Notes: generated by a model not told the origin, from the letters alone. A DNA stretch of 60,387 bases from an uncultured bacterium (GCA_903930455.1 CAIYYT010000070.1:1-60387), one strand, 5' to 3'. Positions 5,908 through 35,028 are shown, counted from the stretch's first letter. A program made the numbers and translations.

Positions 5908-6615
5908 CTATTTCAATAGCAGCATCTTCCTGGCTTCGACATAATCGCCGACCTGCAAGCGATAAAGGTATACTCCCGAGGAGACCGTTTCCCCGTTCAT
6001 GTCCTTTCCGTCCCAAGTGGTCCGGAAAGCGCCGGCCGGAAGGCTACCTGTGACGAGGTTGGCAACTTCCTGACCGACGATATTATATATCTTCAGACTC
6101 GCGAACCCGGGGCGGGGCAAGGCAAAGCGAATTACAGTAGATGGGTTGAATGGGTTCGGATAGTTCTGAGCCAGCATGTATTCTTTGGGAATAAGTTGAT
6201 CCACGTCCTGCTCGACAGCAACTATCAGCGATGGAGTGAAATTGTTACCGCTACCGCTTGTGTCTGCCCGGACATTGACAAAAACCCGCTGGGTTGGGCT
6301 GAACACGCAACCGCCTCTGGATGGTGTTAGCGTGCCGGACCAGCTATACGGGACAGCAAACGAGTAGGCGCCATTCCCGCTGGCAATCACGACAGTGTCC
6401 GGCGTTCCATAAGTCAAAGTCGCGCCCGCTACACCGGCGGTGCCGGAAATCGTGACTACTGACGTATTGGCCAGCGTTACGGTTACTGTGATTGTGGCTG
6501 ATGTCGCGCCAGTTGCAGTTTGGAAAAACGTTCCGCCCGCAGAAGGCAGCAGCGAAACCGGTATGATTATTGCCATGGCGGCCACTGCGATCGATGTTGC
6601 CAGGATTCGACTCAT
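5908..6615 (-). CDS. Secreted protein: putative donor strand, one beta-sandwich repeat and a FlgD-Ig/T9SS type-A C-terminal domain
   Basis: Signal peptide; C-terminus QNYPNPFNPST...WDGKD..G..VSSGVYLYRLQ..RKMLLLK. ATG at 6615 follows GAGGA (alternative start 6627). Confidence 0.85.
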   Translation of the reverse strand: MSRILATSIAVAAMAIIIPVSLLPSAGGTFFQTATGATSATITVTVTLANTSVVTISGTAGVAGATLTYGTPDTVVIASGNGAYSFAVPYSWSGTLTPSRGGCVFSPTQRVFVNVRADTSGSGNNFTPSLIVAVEQDVDQLIPKEYMLAQNYPNPFNPSTVIRFALPRPGFASLKIYNIVGQEVANLVTGSLPAGAFRTTWDGKDMNGETVSSGVYLYRLQVGDYVEARKMLLLK

Positions 6616-6639
6616 ATTAATCCTCATTCGCCCATCTTT

Positions 6640-7557
6640 CTATTTAATCGAGGCGTAGACTCTCGAATAGACCCCTGCACTGACTTTTTCGCCAACGACA
6701 TATGCATGGATGATGAACATAAATCGCTTGCCGCAATACTCCGTTCGCTCAGAAAAGTCAAGATACACTCGCACTTCCTTTGTTCCGTATGGCGGGAGAA
6801 CGAACTCATTCTCGCTGAACCTTAAGTAGGAAGCATCGGGAGCATCTTCGTATCCTTCAGTGAGCGCGGTTACCGAATTGCTTACCGTCAAGCTGCGTAA
6901 CCGCAACAATTGTTCATGTTCACTGTGGTTAGATACTGTCAGAACCGAACCCTTTCGGGTTTCCGGATCATAGATCGTCCCCAGTTCTACATCATCCAAA
7001 AACATCTTCTCCGGATTCAGCACAAGCTCGACGCTGGCATCGGAAGACTTGACTATCTCATTTACCGGTGCTTTCGTGGCGTCGGTAGTGAAGATTATCC
7101 TGGATTTCAGCCCTAAACCTAAAGACATCGCACGGCCTGCGAGAGCCACAGTATGAGACCAAATCGCTACCTGATACTTTTTCCCGAGGTACCGATTTTC
7201 GTCCGGGATGGACAGTGTAATGTCCGATAGAGCAATCTCGTCTGGGCCCAGCACAAAGGTGTCCTGGCTCAGCTTCAACCATGAAATGTCCGGAATCGGG
7301 CTTGCGCCCTTCTTCAACTCCGAACTGTCCGGTGACAGAATATCCATTTTCAAAGCCACACTATCGTCGCAGTCATTGGTGACGCCCAGACGCAGGTTCG
7401 CCAACTGCTTCAAGCTGTAGGTCTGGCCCACCTGCAGGTTCTCGACAACTACTTCACCCAACCCGGTGCTCAGCCCTCCCGCTTGCAGGGGGGTGGCAAC
7501 AACGAGTGTCAGGACAAATAGCCAGGCAGTTGCAAATCCATTTGATGCGATTTTCAT
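6640..7557 (-). CDS. Secreted two-domain Ig-like protein, PapD/DUF916-like putative chaperone
   Basis: Signal peptide ending LQA. Two internally similar domains (PDISWLKLSQDTFVLGPDE / PDASYLRFSENEFVLPPYG, then YLGKKY / YCGKRF). AGGAG RBS. Confidence 0.65.
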   Translation of the reverse strand: MKIASNGFATAWLFVLTLVVATPLQAGGLSTGLGEVVVENLQVGQTYSLKQLANLRLGVTNDCDDSVALKMDILSPDSSELKKGASPIPDISWLKLSQDTFVLGPDEIALSDITLSIPDENRYLGKKYQVAIWSHTVALAGRAMSLGLGLKSRIIFTTDATKAPVNEIVKSSDASVELVLNPEKMFLDDVELGTIYDPETRKGSVLTVSNHSEHEQLLRLRSLTVSNSVTALTEGYEDAPDASYLRFSENEFVLPPYGTKEVRVYLDFSERTEYCGKRFMFIIHAYVVGEKVSAGVYSRVYASIK

Positions 7558-7638
7558 TTTGTGTTCTCCTAAAGAAATAAAGCAGAGATTCCGATTCTCC
7601 GCTTCTTCTTCTCACAATCCGCCTCGTTGCCGATCAGC

Positions 7639-8199
7639 CTAGCTGCCCGCTGTTATTGTAACCGTGATAGACCTCTGCGCTAAAGTTGTCGAGGTTGCAG
7701 GCGCTTCTAACTGCAACCACAAATTCCGGTTTGCGGTCGTCAGAACGGAGGCGCCACTTTGCCCGGCAGTGCCGTTGCCGAAGTCCGTGGCAGTGCATGC
7801 TGTCGGAATTGTGGTCAGCACATCCTCGGCACCGAAAGTGGCTCCCGGCGCTGCAGTGCTAAACATGGCGCTTAATTGATATTCATTCAAATTTGCGGGG
7901 TTTCCTACGGTCCAACCCGCAGGGGTAGTCGCGGACGTCAGGCTCAGCGAATACGTCTCAGTGCCTTCGCCATCATTATTAACTACTATCGCTGTTCCCG
8001 AAACAGTCGTGCTCCCCAACGCCAGTGGTGTTCCGACAGTACCAAAAGCGACTAGTCCGCCACTCGTCACATTTACACTAACGCCCGAAAGAGTCACGGT
8101 GACAGTGACGTCGGCGGTCCCGGCGGCCTGAACAGGCGACACCCACAATACCGCTACCAGAGCAGCCATTGCGCACATTGATGAAAATACAGTCTTCAT
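7639..8199 (-). CDS. Secreted Thr/Ala/Gly-rich pilin/WxL-like fibre subunit
   Basis: Signal peptide ending PVQA. Mature N-terminus AGTADVTVTVTL, internal VVNNDG..ETYSLSL, GWTV and NLWLQL, C-terminal ITVTITA strand. ATG at 8199 follows GAAGGA (ORF track starts at 8352). Confidence 0.7.
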   Translation of the reverse strand: MKTVFSSMCAMAALVAVLWVSPVQAAGTADVTVTVTLSGVSVNVTSGGLVAFGTVGTPLALGSTTVSGTAIVVNNDGEGTETYSLSLTSATTPAGWTVGNPANLNEYQLSAMFSTAAPGATFGAEDVLTTIPTACTATDFGNGTAGQSGASVLTTANRNLWLQLEAPATSTTLAQRSITVTITAGS

Positions 8200-8585: not shown

Positions 8586-8623
8586 AAAAAACCGGGCGGA
8601 CAGATTATTTGGTCTGTCCGCCC
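8586..8623 (-). terminator. Intrinsic terminator after the 9518..8646 gene
   Basis: GGGCGGACAGA / TCTGTCCGCCC 11-bp stem followed by a T6 tract on the minus strand. Confidence 0.8.
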
Positions 8624-8645
8624 AGATATCGTATCAAGAAAGCCA

Positions 8646-9518
8646 CTATTTCATTAGCAGCATTTTTTTGGTCTCAGCATAATCACCCGCTTGCAGGCGA
8701 TAGAAGTACACTCCCGAGGAGACTGTCTTGCCGTTCATATCCGTCCCGTTCCAAGTGGTCCAGAAAGCACCGGCGGGAAGGGTACCTACGAGGAGGTCAG
8801 CAACTTCCTGACCGACGATATTATAAACCTTCAAACTTACAGAAGCCGCTCTGGGGATGGCAAAGTGAATCAATGTCGATGGGTTGAATGGATTCGGACT
8901 GTTTTGCCCAAGCGAGTATTCCTGGGGAATGCCAGTGCCCAAGTCCTGCTCGACATTGAGAATGAGTGATGGGGAAAAATCGTTGGTGTCTGTGCTCATC
9001 AAGACATGGGCGAAATCCAGAGTATCCGGAATAAAAGTAAAGCCGGTCTTACTCGGCGTTAGCGTGCCGGTCCAATCGTACGGGGCAAAGAAAGAATAGT
9101 CCCCGCTCCCATCGGCTGTCACCGTTGTGTCTTCACCTGTTCCATAAGTCAGGACTGTGCCGGCCACGCCGGCGTTGCCGGAGATAGTGACTGAATCAAT
9201 CAGGAAATCGTTGCCGCTTGAGCTCGCTCCGACACTGATAAAGACCCGATGGACTGGGCTGAAGACGTAACCGGCTTTGGACGGCGTTAGCGTGCCGGAC
9301 CAGCCGTCCAGAACTTGGAATGCATAGTCGCCAGTCGTCGAGTCGGCGACTATTGTCTGCAGCGTTCCATCGAAATAGGTCAAGGTCGTTCCGGGCGAAC
9401 CGACGATACCGGCGTTGCCGGAAATGGTCATGTGAGCCAGTGCTGAAGTGAAAGACAGGCACACAACTGCGATGGCCAGAACCGCGATTCTGGTGAAATC
9501 ACTTTTGCGATTTCTCAT
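8646..9518 (-). CDS. Secreted protein: two beta-sandwich repeats and a FlgD-Ig/T9SS type-A C-terminal domain
   Basis: Two TISGNAG...GTLTPSK..F.P repeats; C-terminus QNSPNPFNPST...SGVYFYRLQ..KKMLLMK. ATG at 9518 follows GAGGAGG; paralogue of 5908..6615. Confidence 0.88.
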   Translation of the reverse strand: MRNRKSDFTRIAVLAIAVVCLSFTSALAHMTISGNAGIVGSPGTTLTYFDGTLQTIVADSTTGDYAFQVLDGWSGTLTPSKAGYVFSPVHRVFISVGASSSGNDFLIDSVTISGNAGVAGTVLTYGTGEDTTVTADGSGDYSFFAPYDWTGTLTPSKTGFTFIPDTLDFAHVLMSTDTNDFSPSLILNVEQDLGTGIPQEYSLGQNSPNPFNPSTLIHFAIPRAASVSLKVYNIVGQEVADLLVGTLPAGAFWTTWNGTDMNGKTVSSGVYFYRLQAGDYAETKKMLLMK

Positions 9519-22604: not shown

Positions 22605-25600
22605 ATGAACATGAATCCAAAACTGTCTCTACAATATCTGACCGGCCGGCTTAACCATCTGCGGAATTTCATTCTTCTGACCCATTTTGGATCTGGTGTC
22701 GCGTTGATTCTGTCGGCGCTGGCGGTCTTTCTTTTCGTTGGCTTTCTCTTCAATGCCGCCTTCTTCCTGACGGTCGCTTTCAGAATCATCTTTGTTTCTC
22801 TGGCGGCGATTGCGGTGGTGGCGTTGTTTGTCCATACCATTTTCTGGAAGATTCTTACTCGACCAAATACGGAGTCGGTCGCGTTGCAGGTGGAAAAAAG
22901 CTACCCCGAACTACAAAACCGGTTAATCGCCTCGTTACAACTCGAACGCAACTTGCAGGAAAATCGCGAGGGGTTCTCGACCGATATGATACAGGCGATC
23001 ATCGGCCAGTCCGAGCAAATGTGCCGCGGTATTGATTTCCACAAGTCGGTCGACAGGAAACCGCTGCGACGCGGTCTACGCTATTTCGGTTCCTCGGCGT
23101 TAGCGATCCTGCTTCTTGCCGTGCTATTTCCCGGTGCTTTCAATGAGTCGGTCTATCTCTTCAGTCATCCGACCGTGGAAGTTCCGCGCAATCTGAGCTA
23201 TTCGCTTGAGGTTCTCCCCGGCAGCATCGAGATCGCGAAATTCTCGACGATCAAAATTCAGGCATCATTGCGCGGAAAATCGCTTCCAGAAGGGGCTACC
23301 TTGTATTGGCAGTATGAAGATGGTCCGGTCAAGACCGAGGAACTCGCCAAGGAGGCATCTGCCGCAGGTATTGGCGCGCATTTCAATCTGAGCGACACCG
23401 CCAAGTTCGCGTACGACTTCCGTGAAGTCAAAAAATCATTCGACTACTGGGTATCTGCCGGCGAAGTTAAGTCACCTGTCTACACGATTACCGCCGTCGA
23501 CAAACCGCGCGTAATCGACATCAAGCTGACCTATACCTATCCGTCATACACCGGTCTGCAGCCGCTCGTCGTGGACGAAAACGACGGCAATATTTCGGCG
23601 ATCAAGGGAACTCGCGTCAAGATTGAGGCCTCGGTCAACAAGACGGTGGTCGTTGCGTCATTGCAGTTTGGCAGCGGTCAATCGGAGAAACTTGATGTCT
23701 CCAAGCAGAAGCTAAGCGGCGGTCTGACGGTGACTGATAACGGCACCTACCACATCACCGTCAAGGACGAACTCGGCAACGAGAATCCCGATCCCATTGA
23801 GTATCGCATTGAATCGATAGCCGATCTTTCTCCCGAAGTGGATCTCTTTTCTCCCGGCGTTCCCGTCGAACTGGGCGACGACATGGCGCTCAAACTCGGA
23901 TTCAAGCTGTTCGATGATTTTGGTTTTTCCTCGGTCAATTTGATCTACCGCATCTTCACGGTACCGGGGGAGACCTTTGAAAAAAAGACGGCGCTTGTTT
24001 TCGACAAGAAGGCCGGTCGCAATTTCGAAATGGCCTATCCCTGGGACATGGGCGACATCGGGCTGGAGCCCGGTGGTTGGGTCGAGTACTACATCGAGGC
24101 CTTTGACAACGACAATATCTCCGGACCCAAGCGGGGCGTGTCGCAGACGCTGACCGCGCGATTGCCTTCTCTGCAAGAGCAGTTTGCATATCTGGATGCC
24201 GAGAGCGATTCGCAGATCACCGATCTGGAGAAACTGAAGACGGCGCAAGAGGAACTGCAGCAGAAAACCGAGAAGCTTCAGGAAGAGTTGATGAACAACA
24301 AGGAGCTCAACTGGGAGAAGAAGCAGGAGATTCAGAAGTCGGTTCAGTCGCAGCAAAACGTTCTCGATGCCATGAAGAAGGTTGGTGAGCGGTTGCAGGA
24401 TATGCAGGACAAGATGGAGAAGAACGACATGACGTCACTCGAGGTCCTGCAGAAGCTACAAGAGATCCGCAAGCTCTTCGATCAGGTTGCTACTCCGGAA
24501 ATGAAAGAGGCCATGCGCAAACTGCAAGAGCAGATGGATAAGATGACGCCGGAAGAGATGCAAAAAGCGGCTGAGGACATGAAACTCTCACAGGAGGAGT
24601 TGAAACAGCGTCTCGATCGCACGATCGCGCTTCTCAAGATGTTACAATTGCAGCAGAAGATGGAAAACATGATGCGGCAGTTGGGGGATCTGATCAAGCA
24701 GCAGGAAGGCGTCAATAAGCAAACGGGTTCCTCCGAGTCCAGCCAGTTACCGCAACTGGCGCCCAAGGAAGAGCAGAACCAGAAAGACTTCGAAAACCTA
24801 CAGCAGCAAGCCAAGGAGCTTGAGGAAATGCTGCAGGAGCAGAAGCTCGATCAGAATGAAGCAGCTCAGAAGTTCACGCAGTCACCGAAAAACTCCAAAG
24901 CCGGCGAGAAGATGCAGGCCATGACTCAAGGTTTGCAGACAAAGGACAAACAGAGTTCAGAGCAAAAGGGCGAATCGGCTCTCGACGACCTCAAGCAGCT
25001 ACAGAAAGAAATGGAGGACTCTAAGAATTCCTTCAACTCCGGCATGGGCGAGCAGTCGGCGGAAAAGATGAAGGGGGCGGCGAACGATGTGCTCTACGTC
25101 TCGGACCAACAGGAGAAAGTGTTTGATCGAGCCGAAAACTCGGATCCGACCTCCCCGCAACTGCAGCAACTGGCTGCCGAGCAGCAGGCGTTGCAGAAGA
25201 CGCTGCAATCACTGGATACGAAACTGAAGGATATCTCGAAAGAATCCCCCTTCTATTCGCAACAGATTGACAAGCTGATGAAGCAGGCGCGCGAGGCCAT
25301 GGATCAGTCGACGCAAGGACTGATGGAACGCAATGGTTCGAATGCCATGCGTTGCCAGAAAGATGCCATGTTCTCACTCAATCAAGCCGCCAACCAACTA
25401 ATGCAATCGATGCAAAGCCAGAAACAGTGTTCCAACGGCAGTTGCTCAAGCCAGAATATGTTTAAGAAGATGAACAAGCTGTGCAACAGTCAGAAGCAAG
25501 TCAATCAGCAATCATCCTCGATGTGCCAGAACCCGAAGCCGGGACGTGTCGACAAAGATGGCATGGGGCGTCTCGCCGCTGAGCAGGAAGCTGTCCGCCA

Positions 25601-25991
25601 GGGTATCGGCGATTTACAGCGCGAACAGGGAACTCGTAAAGAAATCCTCGGTCGGCTGGACGAACTTGGCAAAGAGATCAAGAAGGTCTCGGAAGATATT
25701 GAAGGTGGCACTCTTAACGAAAACACGCTTCGCCGCCAGCAGCAGATCTACTCGCGCATGCTGGATTTTCAGCATTCCCTACAGCGGCAGGATTTCTCCG
25801 AGGACCGCAAGGCTGAGACCGCGCAGGACATTCTCCGGCAGTCACCGCCGTCGCTACAGTTCAACGCGCAGAGCAAGGATAGCTATCAGGACCGCCTGCA
25901 AAAATACCTTAACGAGGGCTACCCGCCGGAATATGAGGAACTGATCAAAGAATACTTCAAAGCGATCAATAACGGTCAACCGGAGAAATGA
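22605..25991 (+). CDS. DUF4175-like membrane protein with Ig-like domains and a long Q/E/K coiled coil
   Basis: Three N-terminal TM segments, YPSYTG, DDFG, AFDNDNISGPK, a long heptad region, and C-terminal YPPEYEELIKEYFK. Confidence 0.8.
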   Translation: MNMNPKLSLQYLTGRLNHLRNFILLTHFGSGVALILSALAVFLFVGFLFNAAFFLTVAFRIIFVSLAAIAVVALFVHTIFWKILTRPNTESVALQVEKSYPELQNRLIASLQLERNLQENREGFSTDMIQAIIGQSEQMCRGIDFHKSVDRKPLRRGLRYFGSSALAILLLAVLFPGAFNESVYLFSHPTVEVPRNLSYSLEVLPGSIEIAKFSTIKIQASLRGKSLPEGATLYWQYEDGPVKTEELAKEASAAGIGAHFNLSDTAKFAYDFREVKKSFDYWVSAGEVKSPVYTITAVDKPRVIDIKLTYTYPSYTGLQPLVVDENDGNISAIKGTRVKIEASVNKTVVVASLQFGSGQSEKLDVSKQKLSGGLTVTDNGTYHITVKDELGNENPDPIEYRIESIADLSPEVDLFSPGVPVELGDDMALKLGFKLFDDFGFSSVNLIYRIFTVPGETFEKKTALVFDKKAGRNFEMAYPWDMGDIGLEPGGWVEYYIEAFDNDNISGPKRGVSQTLTARLPSLQEQFAYLDAESDSQITDLEKLKTAQEELQQKTEKLQEELMNNKELNWEKKQEIQKSVQSQQNVLDAMKKVGERLQDMQDKMEKNDMTSLEVLQKLQEIRKLFDQVATPEMKEAMRKLQEQMDKMTPEEMQKAAEDMKLSQEELKQRLDRTIALLKMLQLQQKMENMMRQLGDLIKQQEGVNKQTGSSESSQLPQLAPKEEQNQKDFENLQQQAKELEEMLQEQKLDQNEAAQKFTQSPKNSKAGEKMQAMTQGLQTKDKQSSEQKGESALDDLKQLQKEMEDSKNSFNSGMGEQSAEKMKGAANDVLYVSDQQEKVFDRAENSDPTSPQLQQLAAEQQALQKTLQSLDTKLKDISKESPFYSQQIDKLMKQAREAMDQSTQGLMERNGSNAMRCQKDAMFSLNQAANQLMQSMQSQKQCSNGSCSSQNMFKKMNKLCNSQKQVNQQSSSMCQNPKPGRVDKDGMGRLAAEQEAVRQGIGDLQREQGTRKEILGRLDELGKEIKKVSEDIEGGTLNENTLRRQQQIYSRMLDFQHSLQRQDFSEDRKAETAQDILRQSPPSLQFNAQSKDSYQDRLQKYLNEGYPPEYEELIKEYFKAINNGQPEK

Positions 25992-32166: not shown

Positions 32167-32730
32167 CTACGTCGTTGGCTCAAATTTCTTCTTGAGTTCG
32201 AGAAATATGAGACGCTGGTCGCTTCTTGGAAGGCGACGGATGGTTCTGATCACACTCAAAGTATTGGGAGCGGGTGGAACTACCAGATTGCTGCGGCCTT
32301 CCTTGCAGTTCCTGCAGAAAACTCTCAGGTTCTCGTCGATGGTTGGCCCGCGCCGATCGTCATGATCGATGTGGAGCGTTATCTTGCGGCCAGGGTGGTA
32401 GGGATCGGGATCCGAGGGCGTCACCCCGCACATCGAACAGATCAAGCCGTCACGTTCAATTATCCTCGTACGCTGCGCTTTGTCGATTCTGAGGGCTAAG
32501 CGCGGTTCACGTTTAAGACTCACCAGTAAGTACTCATTAGGTTTCAAGTCGGGCCTGTCCCTACGAGAAAGTATTTGCATCCCCTCATCGTTTCGCAACT
32601 CCCGTATTCTCCTTTGGAAGTCTCTGATCTTGGCAATCCGAGCGATTTGCTCGGTTGTGACTATTTTGCCGACCTTGCCTTCAAGAAACTCCCTGATCTT
32701 GTCTCTCGCGCCTATGTTAGATCTTTTCAA
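32167..32730 (-). CDS. HNH endonuclease with N-terminal wHTH-like domain
   Basis: [36 protein letters not shown]. Probable TTG start at 32730 overlapping the DUF2075 stop (ORF track starts at 32766). Confidence 0.8.
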
Positions 32731-34693
32731 AACCGATTTCTTCCAAATACTTGAAAGTAGAATCATAAAACTCGTGTTTGCGTGTCAAGTCATCTGAGTC
32801 CCCTGATGGGACGACAATCACCATTCCCTGTCTGGCACGAGTTAGAAGAACACGGTAAGCATTCTTCAGGTAAACTTGACGTTCTTGCTTTCTGATGCGA
32901 TTCCAATGGCTTCCGACAAAAGAGAAGTGATCCCATCCTCCTGGGGTATAGCGAAAATCGGCATCCCAGGTGACACATGCCCAATCTAACTCAAGTCCCT
33001 GGACCTGAAACTCCGTGACAACATCCTCAAGGAAATAGGAGGAGCGGACGTCGTCTTTCCCGTCAAGAAACCAATGAATTGGATCGACTGGCGATTTCAC
33101 ATCTATTGCATGTGGCTTCAATCGCTCCGCCTGGGAAGAGACTACAATGCCGTAGCGCTCAGACCCACGCGCCTTTTCTTTGAGCCATTGCTTTGCCTTG
33201 TTGAGATCGCGGGTTATCACAATGGGGTATTTACCTTTCACGTTTGTCAACGTCGTGCGTGCTTCATCTAGCTTCAAATCAAGCAGTTGTTTGACCAGTA
33301 AAGAAACATGCTCGGCGCGAAAAGAACGCATTGAAACAGAAAGATGTAATTCGTCCTTGTTGGTAACAATTGAGTGTTCTCTGACCTTCTCCAGAACTCT
33401 CTCTGCCCCATATTCACTGTCAGTAAGATGAGAAGATATGTAAATGTTCCAATTTGGATACGAACGGTTCAAAGATTCAATCCATTCGCAAATTCCTGCC
33501 TCTCCGGTGTTAATTTCTTGACCTCCACCAACGAGACAAACAACAACAGCCCAATCTGGATGACGATCGAGACAGGAGATTAAGAACTCAGGCTCAGATT
33601 TGTTGAAACTTGGCGTGTTCTTCTTAAGTCGCATAAAATTCGCTGTTTGCCGCAAATCCCACGCTCGTTGCGCTTCATCAAATAGAGCGACATGTTCAAT
33701 GGGTGGCTTCTTGAAGTCCACAAGACATTCATCACGAAAGTTGTGCACATTCTGAATGAACATCTTAACATCACTCATTGCTTCACTCTTCTTAAATTTG
33801 ACTCCTCGTTCCTTTTCGTGTCGAACTTTGTCTCGAGCTAAGGCTTCGCGAAGAATAGCAACAAGCGGGCCATTGCCTGAAAGAAAAACACTGTAAAGAT
33901 CACTATCTTTGTCAATATGCTTTGTCGCTATGTTGAGTCCAACTAAAGTCTTGCCTGCACCTGGGACGCCGGTGACAAAACAGATGGCTTTGTGCGACTT
34001 CTCTCTTGAAAGGCGAATGATTTCGGAGACTGCATCAGATGTTGCGCTGAGATTGATTGCGCTTGCGTCACTTCGAGAGATTTCGCTTACGGAATGGCCA
34101 TTGTACAATGCCATTGCCGCCTCGATGATTGTTGGAGTTGGTTGGTATCTTCCGGTTTCCCACTGAGTTGGGTTAATCTCGTCGCTATTGGCAAAGCACA
34201 AAACATCTGTGATTACTTGTTTGAGCAATTCCCCGTTGCATTTTATCGGAAAGAGCATTCTGTCATTGTGTGGAGTAGTAGAAATTGTTGTAGAAACATT
34301 CCTCGCTTTGGTTGCTATTAATACTGGAGCAACAAAGTGCTCGTGACTTGTCTCGTGAAAGTTTTTCAAATCGAGTGCATAGTCAAATACTTGGTCTATT
34401 GCGTGTGACGGAAATTCACTCTCGCCCACCTTAAACTCAAGGACAAATATAGTCGAGCCAGTAATGACTACAACATCAATTCGTCTTCCCATACGTGGAA
34501 TTGAGTATTCAAAATAGACCGAGCCTTCATGAGGTCGTAATGCCTTCTTGAGGATGTCAATTTCCTCTAGCCATGCGTCTCGTTGAGTCTGCTCCAAAGC
34601 GAAATCGTTACTTCGCACAAGTCTGCCGAGTATCTCATTTGGTGCTGCTTTTAGAAAATCGGTGATTGTGTCAGAATAATACTCTCGTTTCAT
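32717..34693 (-). CDS. DUF2075 (Schlafen group-3-like) nuclease-helicase
   Basis: N-terminal RRIDVV...VLEFK nuclease-like motif, Walker A GVPGAGKT, Walker B FDEAQR, QGLELD and [12 protein letters not shown] at 34693. Confidence 0.9.
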
Positions 34694-35028
34694 ACTGATC
34701 TTCAAGACTTGGCCTGTTATCTCCCCTGGTAAACAACAAGACGGGTTCGCAAGGTGTGATTCTTCTTCTTTGCTTCCATTTCTTCGAAACCGAATTCTCA
34801 CTGATTGTCGGCTACAACTATCGCACATTCCCGTCCTGAATGCAAGCTCAGTTTTCTTTGCACCCAGCGGGTAGTTGAAACATTCCCTTCTCCCTTCCGT
34901 ATTCTGTTCGAAGTGGGACGGCGGCGAAAATGATTGTCCCGCTCGGAAAAAGGTTTTGATATCGGCTTTGAGTGCCGTAGTCTTAGAATGTTGCAGTCTA
35001 GGAATGTGACAGTACAAAGGAGAAGACA

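Follow-up and report, generated by a model that had tools for sequence, protein, structure and literature searches.

How might a bacterium with two membranes end a donor-strand fibre and hold it at the cell, when pili of this kind are thought to need an outer-membrane usher in such an envelope? The question is raised by an operon of three genes on the minus strand (8199..5908) of a 60,387-nucleotide stretch of DNA from an uncultured bacterium (GCA_903930455.1 CAIYYT010000070.1:1-60387; hereafter the window, meaning this whole stretch), which appears to follow a usher-free logic. The genes encode a putative pilin, a 305-aa chaperone-like protein, and a 239-aa protein that joins a pilin-like strand to a C-terminal sorting domain (CTD) of a type IX secretion system (T9SS). 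An earlier reading made from the sequence alone (the sequence-only reading) had proposed that the last of these plugs its strand into the final pilin and tethers the fibre through its CTD. The geometry of a predicted complex and the conservation of the strand across related loci lend support to the first part of that proposal. We therefore favor, at a probability of roughly 0.6, the interpretation of the 239-aa protein as a T9SS-linked base subunit that caps the pilin groove; that the operon as a whole encodes a usher-less donor-strand fibre seems to us somewhat better than an even bet.

A strand shared by the pilin and a T9SS sorting-domain protein

The pilin leader takes up 25 residues (8199..8125), the mature protein opens with the 17 residues AGTADVTVTVTLSGVSV (8074-8124, minus strand), and the 239-aa protein reads GATSATITVTVTLANTSV at 6457-6510 of the same strand. 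Translation of the minus strand bore out the presence of both segments. The narrower ranges first given for them, 8086-8124 and 6469-6507, do lie inside the two segments and cover only their first or inner 13 residues. The existence of a paralogue without the strand, encoded at 9518..8646, was likewise borne out, its leader running directly into the repeat; by BLASTP, the 239-aa protein is, from residue 58 onward, 64% identical to the second half of this paralogue (E 5e-82).

The resemblance between the two strands stands out from the genomic background. Specifically, of the 6,978 six-frame open reading frames (ORFs) of at least 100 aa in the 3.77-Mb genome, two match [VIL]T[VIL]T[VIL]T[VIL], those of the pilin and the 239-aa protein, and among 34 ORFs of the genome with a CTD motif, the latter alone carries it. 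When ORFs were ranked by their best ungapped 9-mer against the first 17 residues of the pilin, the 239-aa protein was the top non-self sequence of all 6,978, with a score of 33 against a genome median of 16 and a 99.9th percentile of 29. Further, a profile-profile comparison with hhalign aligned the two N-termini at a probability of 75% (E 2.5e-5). Taken by itself, the similarity is real but modest, lying in the extreme tail and not decisive, so that the weight of the argument rests on operon position and conservation.

Predicted docking of the strand in the pilin groove

The sequence-only reading had suggested co-folding the strand segment with an N-terminally truncated pilin, and in a co-fold of this kind the segment is predicted to dock. 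The model combined residues 14-161 of the pilin with the strand and middle domain of the 239-aa protein (mature residues 1-115), each chain having its own unpaired alignment. The co-fold returned ipSAE values of 0.92, 0.91, and 0.91, for a score of 0.91, against 0.01 for the best control. The mark was attained in calibration by 58 of 80 solved complexes and by 2 of 110 mismatched pairs; since the alignments used here were our own, these counts apply only approximately. The runs had at least 92% of their contacts in common, and the predicted local distance difference test score (pLDDT) of the partner was at least 82.

Contacts of the 239-aa protein are confined in the model to residues 10-26, while those of the pilin fall at 14-36 and 148-160. 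The residue pairs 153:18, 155:16, and 157:14 (pilin first) set the strand antiparallel to the last pilin strand, and the pairs 25:18 and 27:20 set it parallel to pilin residues 25-27. In the topology of immunoglobulin (Ig) domains, such a placement is the site of the missing G strand, in the orientation of donor-strand exchange.

Conservation of the strand across related loci

We assembled the window and 30 loci found via the 305-aa protein, and the next gene was readable in 29 of the 31 (of the other two loci, one ends too soon and one is disrupted). The order pilin, chaperone-like gene, strand protein is kept across related loci. All 29 readable downstream genes, whose sequences were read by eye, hold a run with four alternating hydrophobic positions. 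The sequence-only reading had allowed that the similarity might be absent from orthologous loci and had proposed to look for co-conservation; the strand is present after the chaperone-like gene in every readable case (29/29). A second alignment, drawn from the 23 proteins that match residues 31-150 of the 239-aa protein, gave the same picture. After one near-identical sequence, three 290-aa paralogues, and one fragment were dropped, 18 of these were aligned with that of the window, and the strand is kept in 19 of 19 proteins of the same architecture.

The other half of the protein is a T9SS type A sorting domain, which makes up the last 87 residues of the 239-aa protein and is recognized there by both TIGR04183 (35.8 bits against a cut-off of 23, residues 156-236) and Pfam FlgD_ig (38.3 bits against a cut-off of 27). 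TIGR04183 exceeds its cut-off in 22 of the 29 strand proteins (21 of 28 besides the window). The remaining seven comprise three that are cut by a contig end, three from Omnitrophota without a CTD, and one of 1876 aa without a detected CTD. Most CTD-type orthologues are 152-215 aa long and consist of a leader, a linker, the strand, 5-16 residues, and the CTD. These minimal orthologues lack the middle domain, and with nothing else that could fold between leader and CTD, the strand has no domain of which it could form part. Together with the strandless repeats of the paralogue, this speaks against the possibility, raised in the sequence-only reading, that the segment folds as a strand of its own domain. 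In the window's genus, a single copy of the repeat known from the paralogue has been inserted after the strand and before the CTD. Pfam assigns this repeat to no family at E 0.01 or better, and no pilin-like domain was found in the 239-aa protein.

The SLIVAVEQD-type stretch that precedes the CTD in the window's protein was considered in place of its N-terminal strand as the equivalent of the strand of the minimal orthologues. It was rejected, as the strandless paralogue has the stretch too and many unrelated CTD proteins of the genome have a similar acidic element. Many CTD proteins of the genome carry such a short V-x-V-D/E-D/E-like element before the CTD.

Several of the loci deserve description in their own right. 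In the Omnitrophota-labelled loci (L076-L080), the genes run tip-like, pilin, chaperone-like, the chaperone-like protein being single-domain and 150-160 aa long, and the next gene opens with a leader and a pilin-like strand. What follows in these loci varies and can be PPC domains (L076), an RHS/YD repeat (L078), or an adjoining gene with an SpvB domain (L079, 4794-5900). On a complete Zixibacteria-labelled chromosome, the genome of L037 and L070, the strand comes right after the leader of the 1876-aa protein (L081, 87-5717), for which no Pfam or NCBIfam match was found. The labels Ignavibacteria, Alphaproteobacteria, Puniceispirillum, and Microgenomates on eight loci (L054, L058, L062, L064, L066, L069, L071, and L073) are possibly unreliable and were not used to argue for spread across phyla; at least three of the eight lie on contigs that a genome search placed in the window's own class.

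The pilin and its chaperone-like partner

The putative pilin belongs to a small family. Of 1,326 candidates, 59 proved homologous at E 0.001 or better; no Pfam domain was seen in any of them, their sole source name is "hypothetical protein", and the pilin profile matches 24 of 285 genomes of the phylum. In source records, one homologue of the pilin and several of the 305-aa protein go under the name candidate division Zixibacteria. A search of the window's genome at E 1 or better returned one match, the pilin itself. The leader and its cleavage context recur in 29 aligned homologues, and in the window the leader ends VQA-AG, a cleavage site without cysteine. In the 29-sequence alignment, little or no variation is seen in the V-T-V-T core that follows the leader or in a C-terminal T-V-T-x-T-A strand. 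The AlphaFold2 (AF2) monomer was built on 58 rows, the window and 57 hits (the other two of the 59 being P0001, which is identical, and P0021, a fragment of 113 aa), and shows a beta-sandwich body at a mean pLDDT of 83.7, with residues 1-16 free of secondary structure and of low confidence (52 and 71 as block means). At E 1 or better, the pilin has no FimA or Mfa Pfam match and no match to the WxL domain (PF13731); the nearest named cluster in a protein atlas is WxL, at 0.82, under the threshold for a lead.

In 13 related loci, the pilin gene is preceded by a tip-like gene, whose product varies in its N-terminal part and has a pilin-like domain at the C-terminal end. One such protein carries DUF2341 and Laminin_G_3, and in several of the alignments the pilin-like domain begins past the donor-strand position. 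The tip-like gene is absent from the window and from the window's genus. Weak hits to the pilin profile in four further genomes (G140, G144, G147, and G150) were set aside, that in G147 belonging to a separate DUF4402-type cluster rather than to the system described here. This cluster (L050, on G147:C43) consists of six small DUF4402-type proteins followed by genes for 313 and 861 aa; its N-termini weakly match the pilin profile, and the 861-aa protein has only sub-threshold SdrD_B and CarboxypepD_reg matches.

The 305-aa protein is the best-conserved member of the operon, with 148 homologues at E 0.001 or better. Among cluster representatives, at least 957 match at E 0.001, 609 at 1e-10, and 269 at 1e-30; those listed all lie at 1e-44 or better and are therefore uninformative on a family link to WxLIP or PapD. 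Among 120 listed close homologues, no source name other than "hypothetical protein" occurs. Its AF2 model (40 rows, pLDDT 87.5) has two beta domains. The first (residues 1-135) superposes best on the WxLIP of Enterococcus faecium (9i1y; Z 11.8, root-mean-square deviation 2.6 over 120 residues), and the second (150-279) on the first domain of YadV (Z 11.7, 2.2 over 103 residues), followed by SafB, EcpB, CupB2, CsuC, FaeE, and PapD at Z 9.7-11.3. Foldseek lists FimC (1.1e-7), PapD, Caf1M, and WxLIP (about 1e-7) below eukaryotic PapD-like (ASH) repeats. Since eukaryotic PapD-like domains score equally high, these matches show fold, not function. At E 1 or better, the protein matches neither PapD_N nor PapD_C, nor DUF916 (PF06030) or DUF3324 (PF11797); in the protein atlas, the nearest named cluster is WxLIP, at 0.85, at lead level only. 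It has a leader and no membrane helix, the model ends in a beta strand (residues 269-278), and none of 40 aligned members has a hydrophobic tail. From this predicted architecture, the 305-aa protein is probably a periplasmic chaperone that keeps the pilin groove open.

Secretion machinery of the host

The window's genome, which is of Zixibacteria type, encodes the T9SS sortase PorU (725.4 bits, cut-off 420) and the translocon SprA (515 bits summed, cut-off 200). The best PorV match reaches 89.6 bits against a cut-off of 250, and one fragment adjoins porU at a contig end. At least 34 ORFs of the genome carry a CTD motif. An usher (PF00577) had no match at E 0.001 or better in this genome, which is rated 100% complete, the E. 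coli control being positive, and no usher-sized gene lies within the conserved module of the fetched loci (L032-L049 and L051-L080). Neither the pilin nor the 305-aa protein has a CTD, and the same is true of the tip-like proteins. With no CTD on any of these and no usher, the strand protein is the only visible link to a secretion system.

Across hosts, PorU exceeds the cut-off in all five genomes sampled for CTD-type loci (5/5) and in none of five from Omnitrophota (0/5), genome completeness not being given for either set. Three of the four readable strand proteins of Omnitrophota show no CTD, and the fourth (L076), cut at a contig end, has a weak CTD-like hit. Judged from these sequences, the type of tail on the strand protein follows the machinery of the host.

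Weighing the base-subunit reading

A number of results weigh against our interpretation, and they concern the co-fold, the strand, the two partner proteins, and the proposed route of export. First, the co-fold is partly circular, as the pilin's own, near-identical strand had been removed; its three controls were unrelated natural proteins, with no scrambled or other free amphipathic strand among them, and the pass may reflect likeness to donor-strand complexes, which are common among solved structures. Second, three long beta-rich ORFs come close to the 239-aa protein in the 9-mer ranking (32, 31, and 31 against 33), two of them with a CTD motif. Further, over 24 loci, the best 9-mer of the strand ranks its own pilin first in only one (ranks 1-18). 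The row for L052 in this comparison used a wrong-frame ORF, and the near-invariance of the pilin N-terminus in the phylum leaves the comparison low in power, so that it shows neither co-evolution nor its absence. Third, the pairing of strand and CTD is not universal, L081 placing the strand on a 1876-aa protein without a detected CTD.

Fourth, the partner proteins cannot be tied to pili by family. Pfam and NCBIfam give no pilus or chaperone family for the pilin or the 305-aa protein, the only matches being to fn3_5 below threshold. Against all solved chains, the profiles of the two return chance hits only (E 0.05 or worse), with no pilus or chaperone chain among them; for the 305-aa profile, no chaperone appears at E 10 or better. 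With the pilin model, Foldseek finds nothing at E 0.001 or better, its best rows (E about 0.01) being CfaB, the TasA fibre (8aur), FimG, Csu pilins, and archaeal bundling pili, and VIA finds no Z of 8 or more, its best values going to TLP-1b (7.3), a bundling pilus (7.1), Csu (6.8), and CooA (6.7), among generic PapD-like domains. Both lists are enriched in donor-strand fibres, yet at scores that commonly occur. These fold results fit a donor-strand subunit and are no proof of one. Finally, in the literature covered, which leaves subscription journals outside, we found no precedent for T9SS export of a pilin that lacks a CTD; it yielded type V pili and reviews, and no donor-strand protein bearing a CTD.

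The alternative that survives best accepts the binding of the strand in the groove and changes its purpose, the 239-aa protein being a nucleator that would bind the first pilin to leave the chaperone and start a chain growing away from itself, or an export adaptor that would carry one or a few subunits without a CTD through the T9SS. The co-fold geometry is silent on timing, and the strand protein, with no usher and no CTD elsewhere, is the sole visible link to secretion. A nucleator would, moreover, resemble TapA at the start of the TasA fibre, TapA being described as acting at initiation as well as anchoring (bioRxiv 10.64898/2026.10.17.759780). Against this, chaperone-usher and Elr pili grow at the groove end through an incoming N-terminal strand, so that a strand without a groove behind it ends growth, and a fibre extended at its free N-terminal end would require complexes of chaperone and subunit wherever that end lies. 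We regard this alternative as unlikely, though it deserves to be kept in mind; in the base-subunit interpretation that we prefer, the 239-aa protein would act last, as a terminator, rather than first, and its CTD might serve as a tether or for export only.

A second alternative sees in the T/V-rich stretch nothing more than the beta linker of some T9SS cargo whose gene lies by chance near that of a beta-rich secreted protein, with no strand donated. It takes up the close scores of other long CTD proteins (32 and 31 against 33), the lack of any cognate-specific covariation found between pilin and strand, and the many CTD proteins of the genome with a short pre-CTD element. However, the strict 7-mer motif is limited to two operon partners out of 6,978 ORFs, and the strand is kept in 29 of 29 loci, including those where it adjoins the leader and no CTD is detected. 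The generic pre-CTD element is acidic and distinct, and it is also present separately before the CTD in the window's own protein. As the co-fold contrast (0.91 against 0.01) likewise speaks against coincidence, we consider this explanation improbable. Least probable by our estimate, and barely credible, is a periplasmic cap that, like FimI in type 1 pili, limits premature or excess polymerisation and uses the CTD merely to dispose of the capped product. The strand protein does have a donor strand without an acceptor, and one entry in the Foldseek list of the 305-aa protein indicates, by its title only, that capping subunits of this sort exist (the assembly inhibitor FimI in complex with FimC). 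The strict pairing of strand and CTD in 22 of 29 loci and the host-tracking tails, however, fit localisation better than disposal.

Gene layout and neighborhood

Four genes for secreted proteins (290, 186, 305, and 239 aa) lie in a row on the minus strand (Table 1). After the 290-aa paralogue comes a gap of 390 bases, and the pilin, 305-aa, and 239-aa genes then follow closely spaced. The paralogue is probably on a transcript of its own, apart from the operon 8199..5908. The weaker hairpin, a pattern match alone, is possibly an attenuator, in which case reduced read-through could give a high ratio of pilin to chaperone; the scan that produced it found 7 such sites against 4.3 expected in shuffles. 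Neighboring genes of the locus are of housekeeping type (M16 peptidases and a phosphoglucomutase-family enzyme).

Table 1. Positions in the window of the operon, its protein segments, and adjacent features
Feature	Position	Strand	Basis
Strandless paralogue gene, 290 aa: leader, two copies of an 85-aa repeat, T9SS CTD	8646..9518	minus	
Strong terminator-like hairpin, 13 pairs (9 G-C) then T run, between paralogue and pilin genes	8592..8625	minus	
Pilin gene, 186 aa	8199..7639	minus	
Pilin signal peptide, 25 aa, ends VQA	8125..8199	minus	Read from translation
Pilin N-terminal extension, mature residues 1-17, presumed donor strand	8074..8124	minus	
Pilin body, predicted beta-sandwich with open groove	7642..8073	minus	AF2
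Last pilin strand, pairs with the incoming strand in the co-fold	7642-7671	minus	
Weaker hairpin, 10 pairs (4 G-C), T-rich tail, between pilin and chaperone-like genes	7579..7605	minus	
Chaperone-like gene, 305 aa, two predicted PapD-like Ig domains, secreted	6640..7557	minus	AF2
Strand/CTD protein gene, 239 aa	6627..5908	minus	
Leader of the 239-aa protein, about 30 aa, cleavage site approximate	6538..6627	minus	Read from translation; conserved in 18 orthologues
Pilin-like donor strand (predicted), mature residues 10-26	6460..6510	minus	Co-fold contacts, conservation, hhalign
Middle domain, one copy of the repeat present twice in the 9518..8646 protein	6208..6456	minus	BLASTP
T9SS type A C-terminal sorting domain	5911..6171	minus	TIGR04183, FlgD_ig

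Elsewhere in the window, a 1128-aa DUF4175 protein (22605-25991) coincides with a spike of AT skew (0.297, 24-26 kb bin), and a protein with a Schlafen-group-3-type helicase domain (32717-35017; E 1e-82) marks the stretch of lowest GC (guanine plus cytosine) content, 0.477.

Comparison with known fibre systems

The sequence-only reading had drawn its analogy from PapH. PapH and FimI donate their N-terminal strand to the last rod subunit, cannot be extended, and so end growth on the side of the cell; they are complete pilin domains held by chaperone and usher. The logic of the comparison holds for the 239-aa protein, and its predicted strand runs antiparallel to the last strand of the acceptor, as in donor-strand exchange. 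The anatomy does not hold, since PapH is a whole pilin subunit, whereas the 239-aa protein has no pilin domain and thus no acceptor. Further, the genome has no usher match, and the 305-aa protein matches neither of the two PapD families.

Type V pili offer a second comparison. In Porphyromonas gingivalis, whose lineage bears a T9SS, the base subunits Mfa2 and FimB both end elongation and serve as anchors, and the fibres are joined by strand exchange. Type V pilins are lipoproteins that are activated by proteolysis and have C-terminal donor strands, and their anchor stays lipidated. Here, in contrast, a lipobox cysteine is missing from the leaders, the donor strand lies at the N-terminus, and a CTD takes the part of the anchor signal. 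Set beside ordinary T9SS type A cargo, the 239-aa protein has the same Sec leader and C-terminal TIGR04183 domain, with PorU and SprA in the genome. It differs in that the cargo of most orthologues is a linker and one beta strand, and the passenger proper would be a separate, non-covalently bound chain.

The closest known system is the Elr/WxL pilus of E. faecalis, the one chaperone-guided system known to work without an usher, and within it ElrB in particular. As described in a preprint of October 2026 (bioRxiv 10.64898/2026.10.17.759780), the pilins ElrD and ElrC carry N-terminal donor strands, ElrE is a DUF916/DUF3324 chaperone, ElrA is a tip with a C-terminal WxL domain, and ElrB, of 13 kDa, combines a donor strand with LPxTG and is predicted by AlphaFold to terminate the fibre. 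The same text reports the system in Bacillota only (48 of 4,698 genera) and a C-terminal transmembrane helix in 96.7% of WxL chaperones; in a term search, it showed no mention of T9SS.

On that description, the two systems share a parts list that includes a two-Ig-domain chaperone and no usher, as well as a small base protein with a donor strand, no acceptor domain, and a signal for a sortase-type enzyme at its end. The role of the base is an AlphaFold-type prediction for ElrB and for the 239-aa protein alike. The structural match of the first domain of the 305-aa protein to WxLIP (Z 11.8) adds to the likeness. There are also differences: the host here is a two-membrane bacterium, the base carries at its end a T9SS type A CTD rather than LPxTG and the membrane helix described for ElrB, and the 305-aa protein is soluble, without the C-terminal transmembrane helix described for WxL chaperones. 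At E 1 or better, moreover, there is no WxL, DUF916, or DUF3324 Pfam match in the operon. TapA-TasA of Bacillus subtilis, treated in the same preprint (bioRxiv 10.64898/2026.10.17.759780), provides a looser parallel, in which an accessory protein makes a strand-type contact with the fibre and ties it to the cell, but it has no PapD-like chaperone, and no sequence relation to the proteins studied here was found.

A possible mechanism and its implications

Taken together, these comparisons allow a mechanism to be sketched. In it, the pilin would be an incomplete Ig-like domain with a free N-terminal strand, held open by the chaperone-like protein until pilins polymerise by strand exchange. In the pilin nearest the cell, the strand of the base subunit would occupy the groove where the G strand is missing, and because it would bring no groove behind it, no further subunit could be added at that end. 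The CTD of the base subunit would then provide the entire non-covalent chain with one sorting signal for the T9SS, located at the chain's C-terminal end, and a single signal of this kind might permit export of the chain through SprA. PorU would subsequently remove the CTD, leaving the fibre attached to the surface, perhaps covalently, or released. In Porphyromonas gingivalis and Flavobacterium, the T9SS exports multi-Ig cargo with a C-terminal CTD, which PorU removes while attaching the product. Read from N to C, a chain of tip, pilins, and base would resemble one long cargo of this type.

Our results suggest that two-membrane bacteria may have a means, not described before, of capping a fibre, exporting it, and anchoring it that dispenses with the usual outer-membrane assembly pore. 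A more far-reaching scenario, which we advance tentatively and consider less likely than not, is that in Zixibacteria and their relatives the T9SS replaces the usher altogether, with a chaperone-primed donor-strand chain built in the periplasm, exported via SprA, and fixed by PorU. In this scenario, the base protein, with its strand and sorting signal, would be a portable module that carries LPxTG, a CTD, or another tail according to the envelope, and the operon would form one ancient family with WxL pili. If this is true, the T9SS could export non-covalent chains that bear one sorting signal, anchoring by a strand-only protein would be a general device adaptable to the envelope, and a function would be gained for a chaperone-like family of at least 957 cluster representatives.

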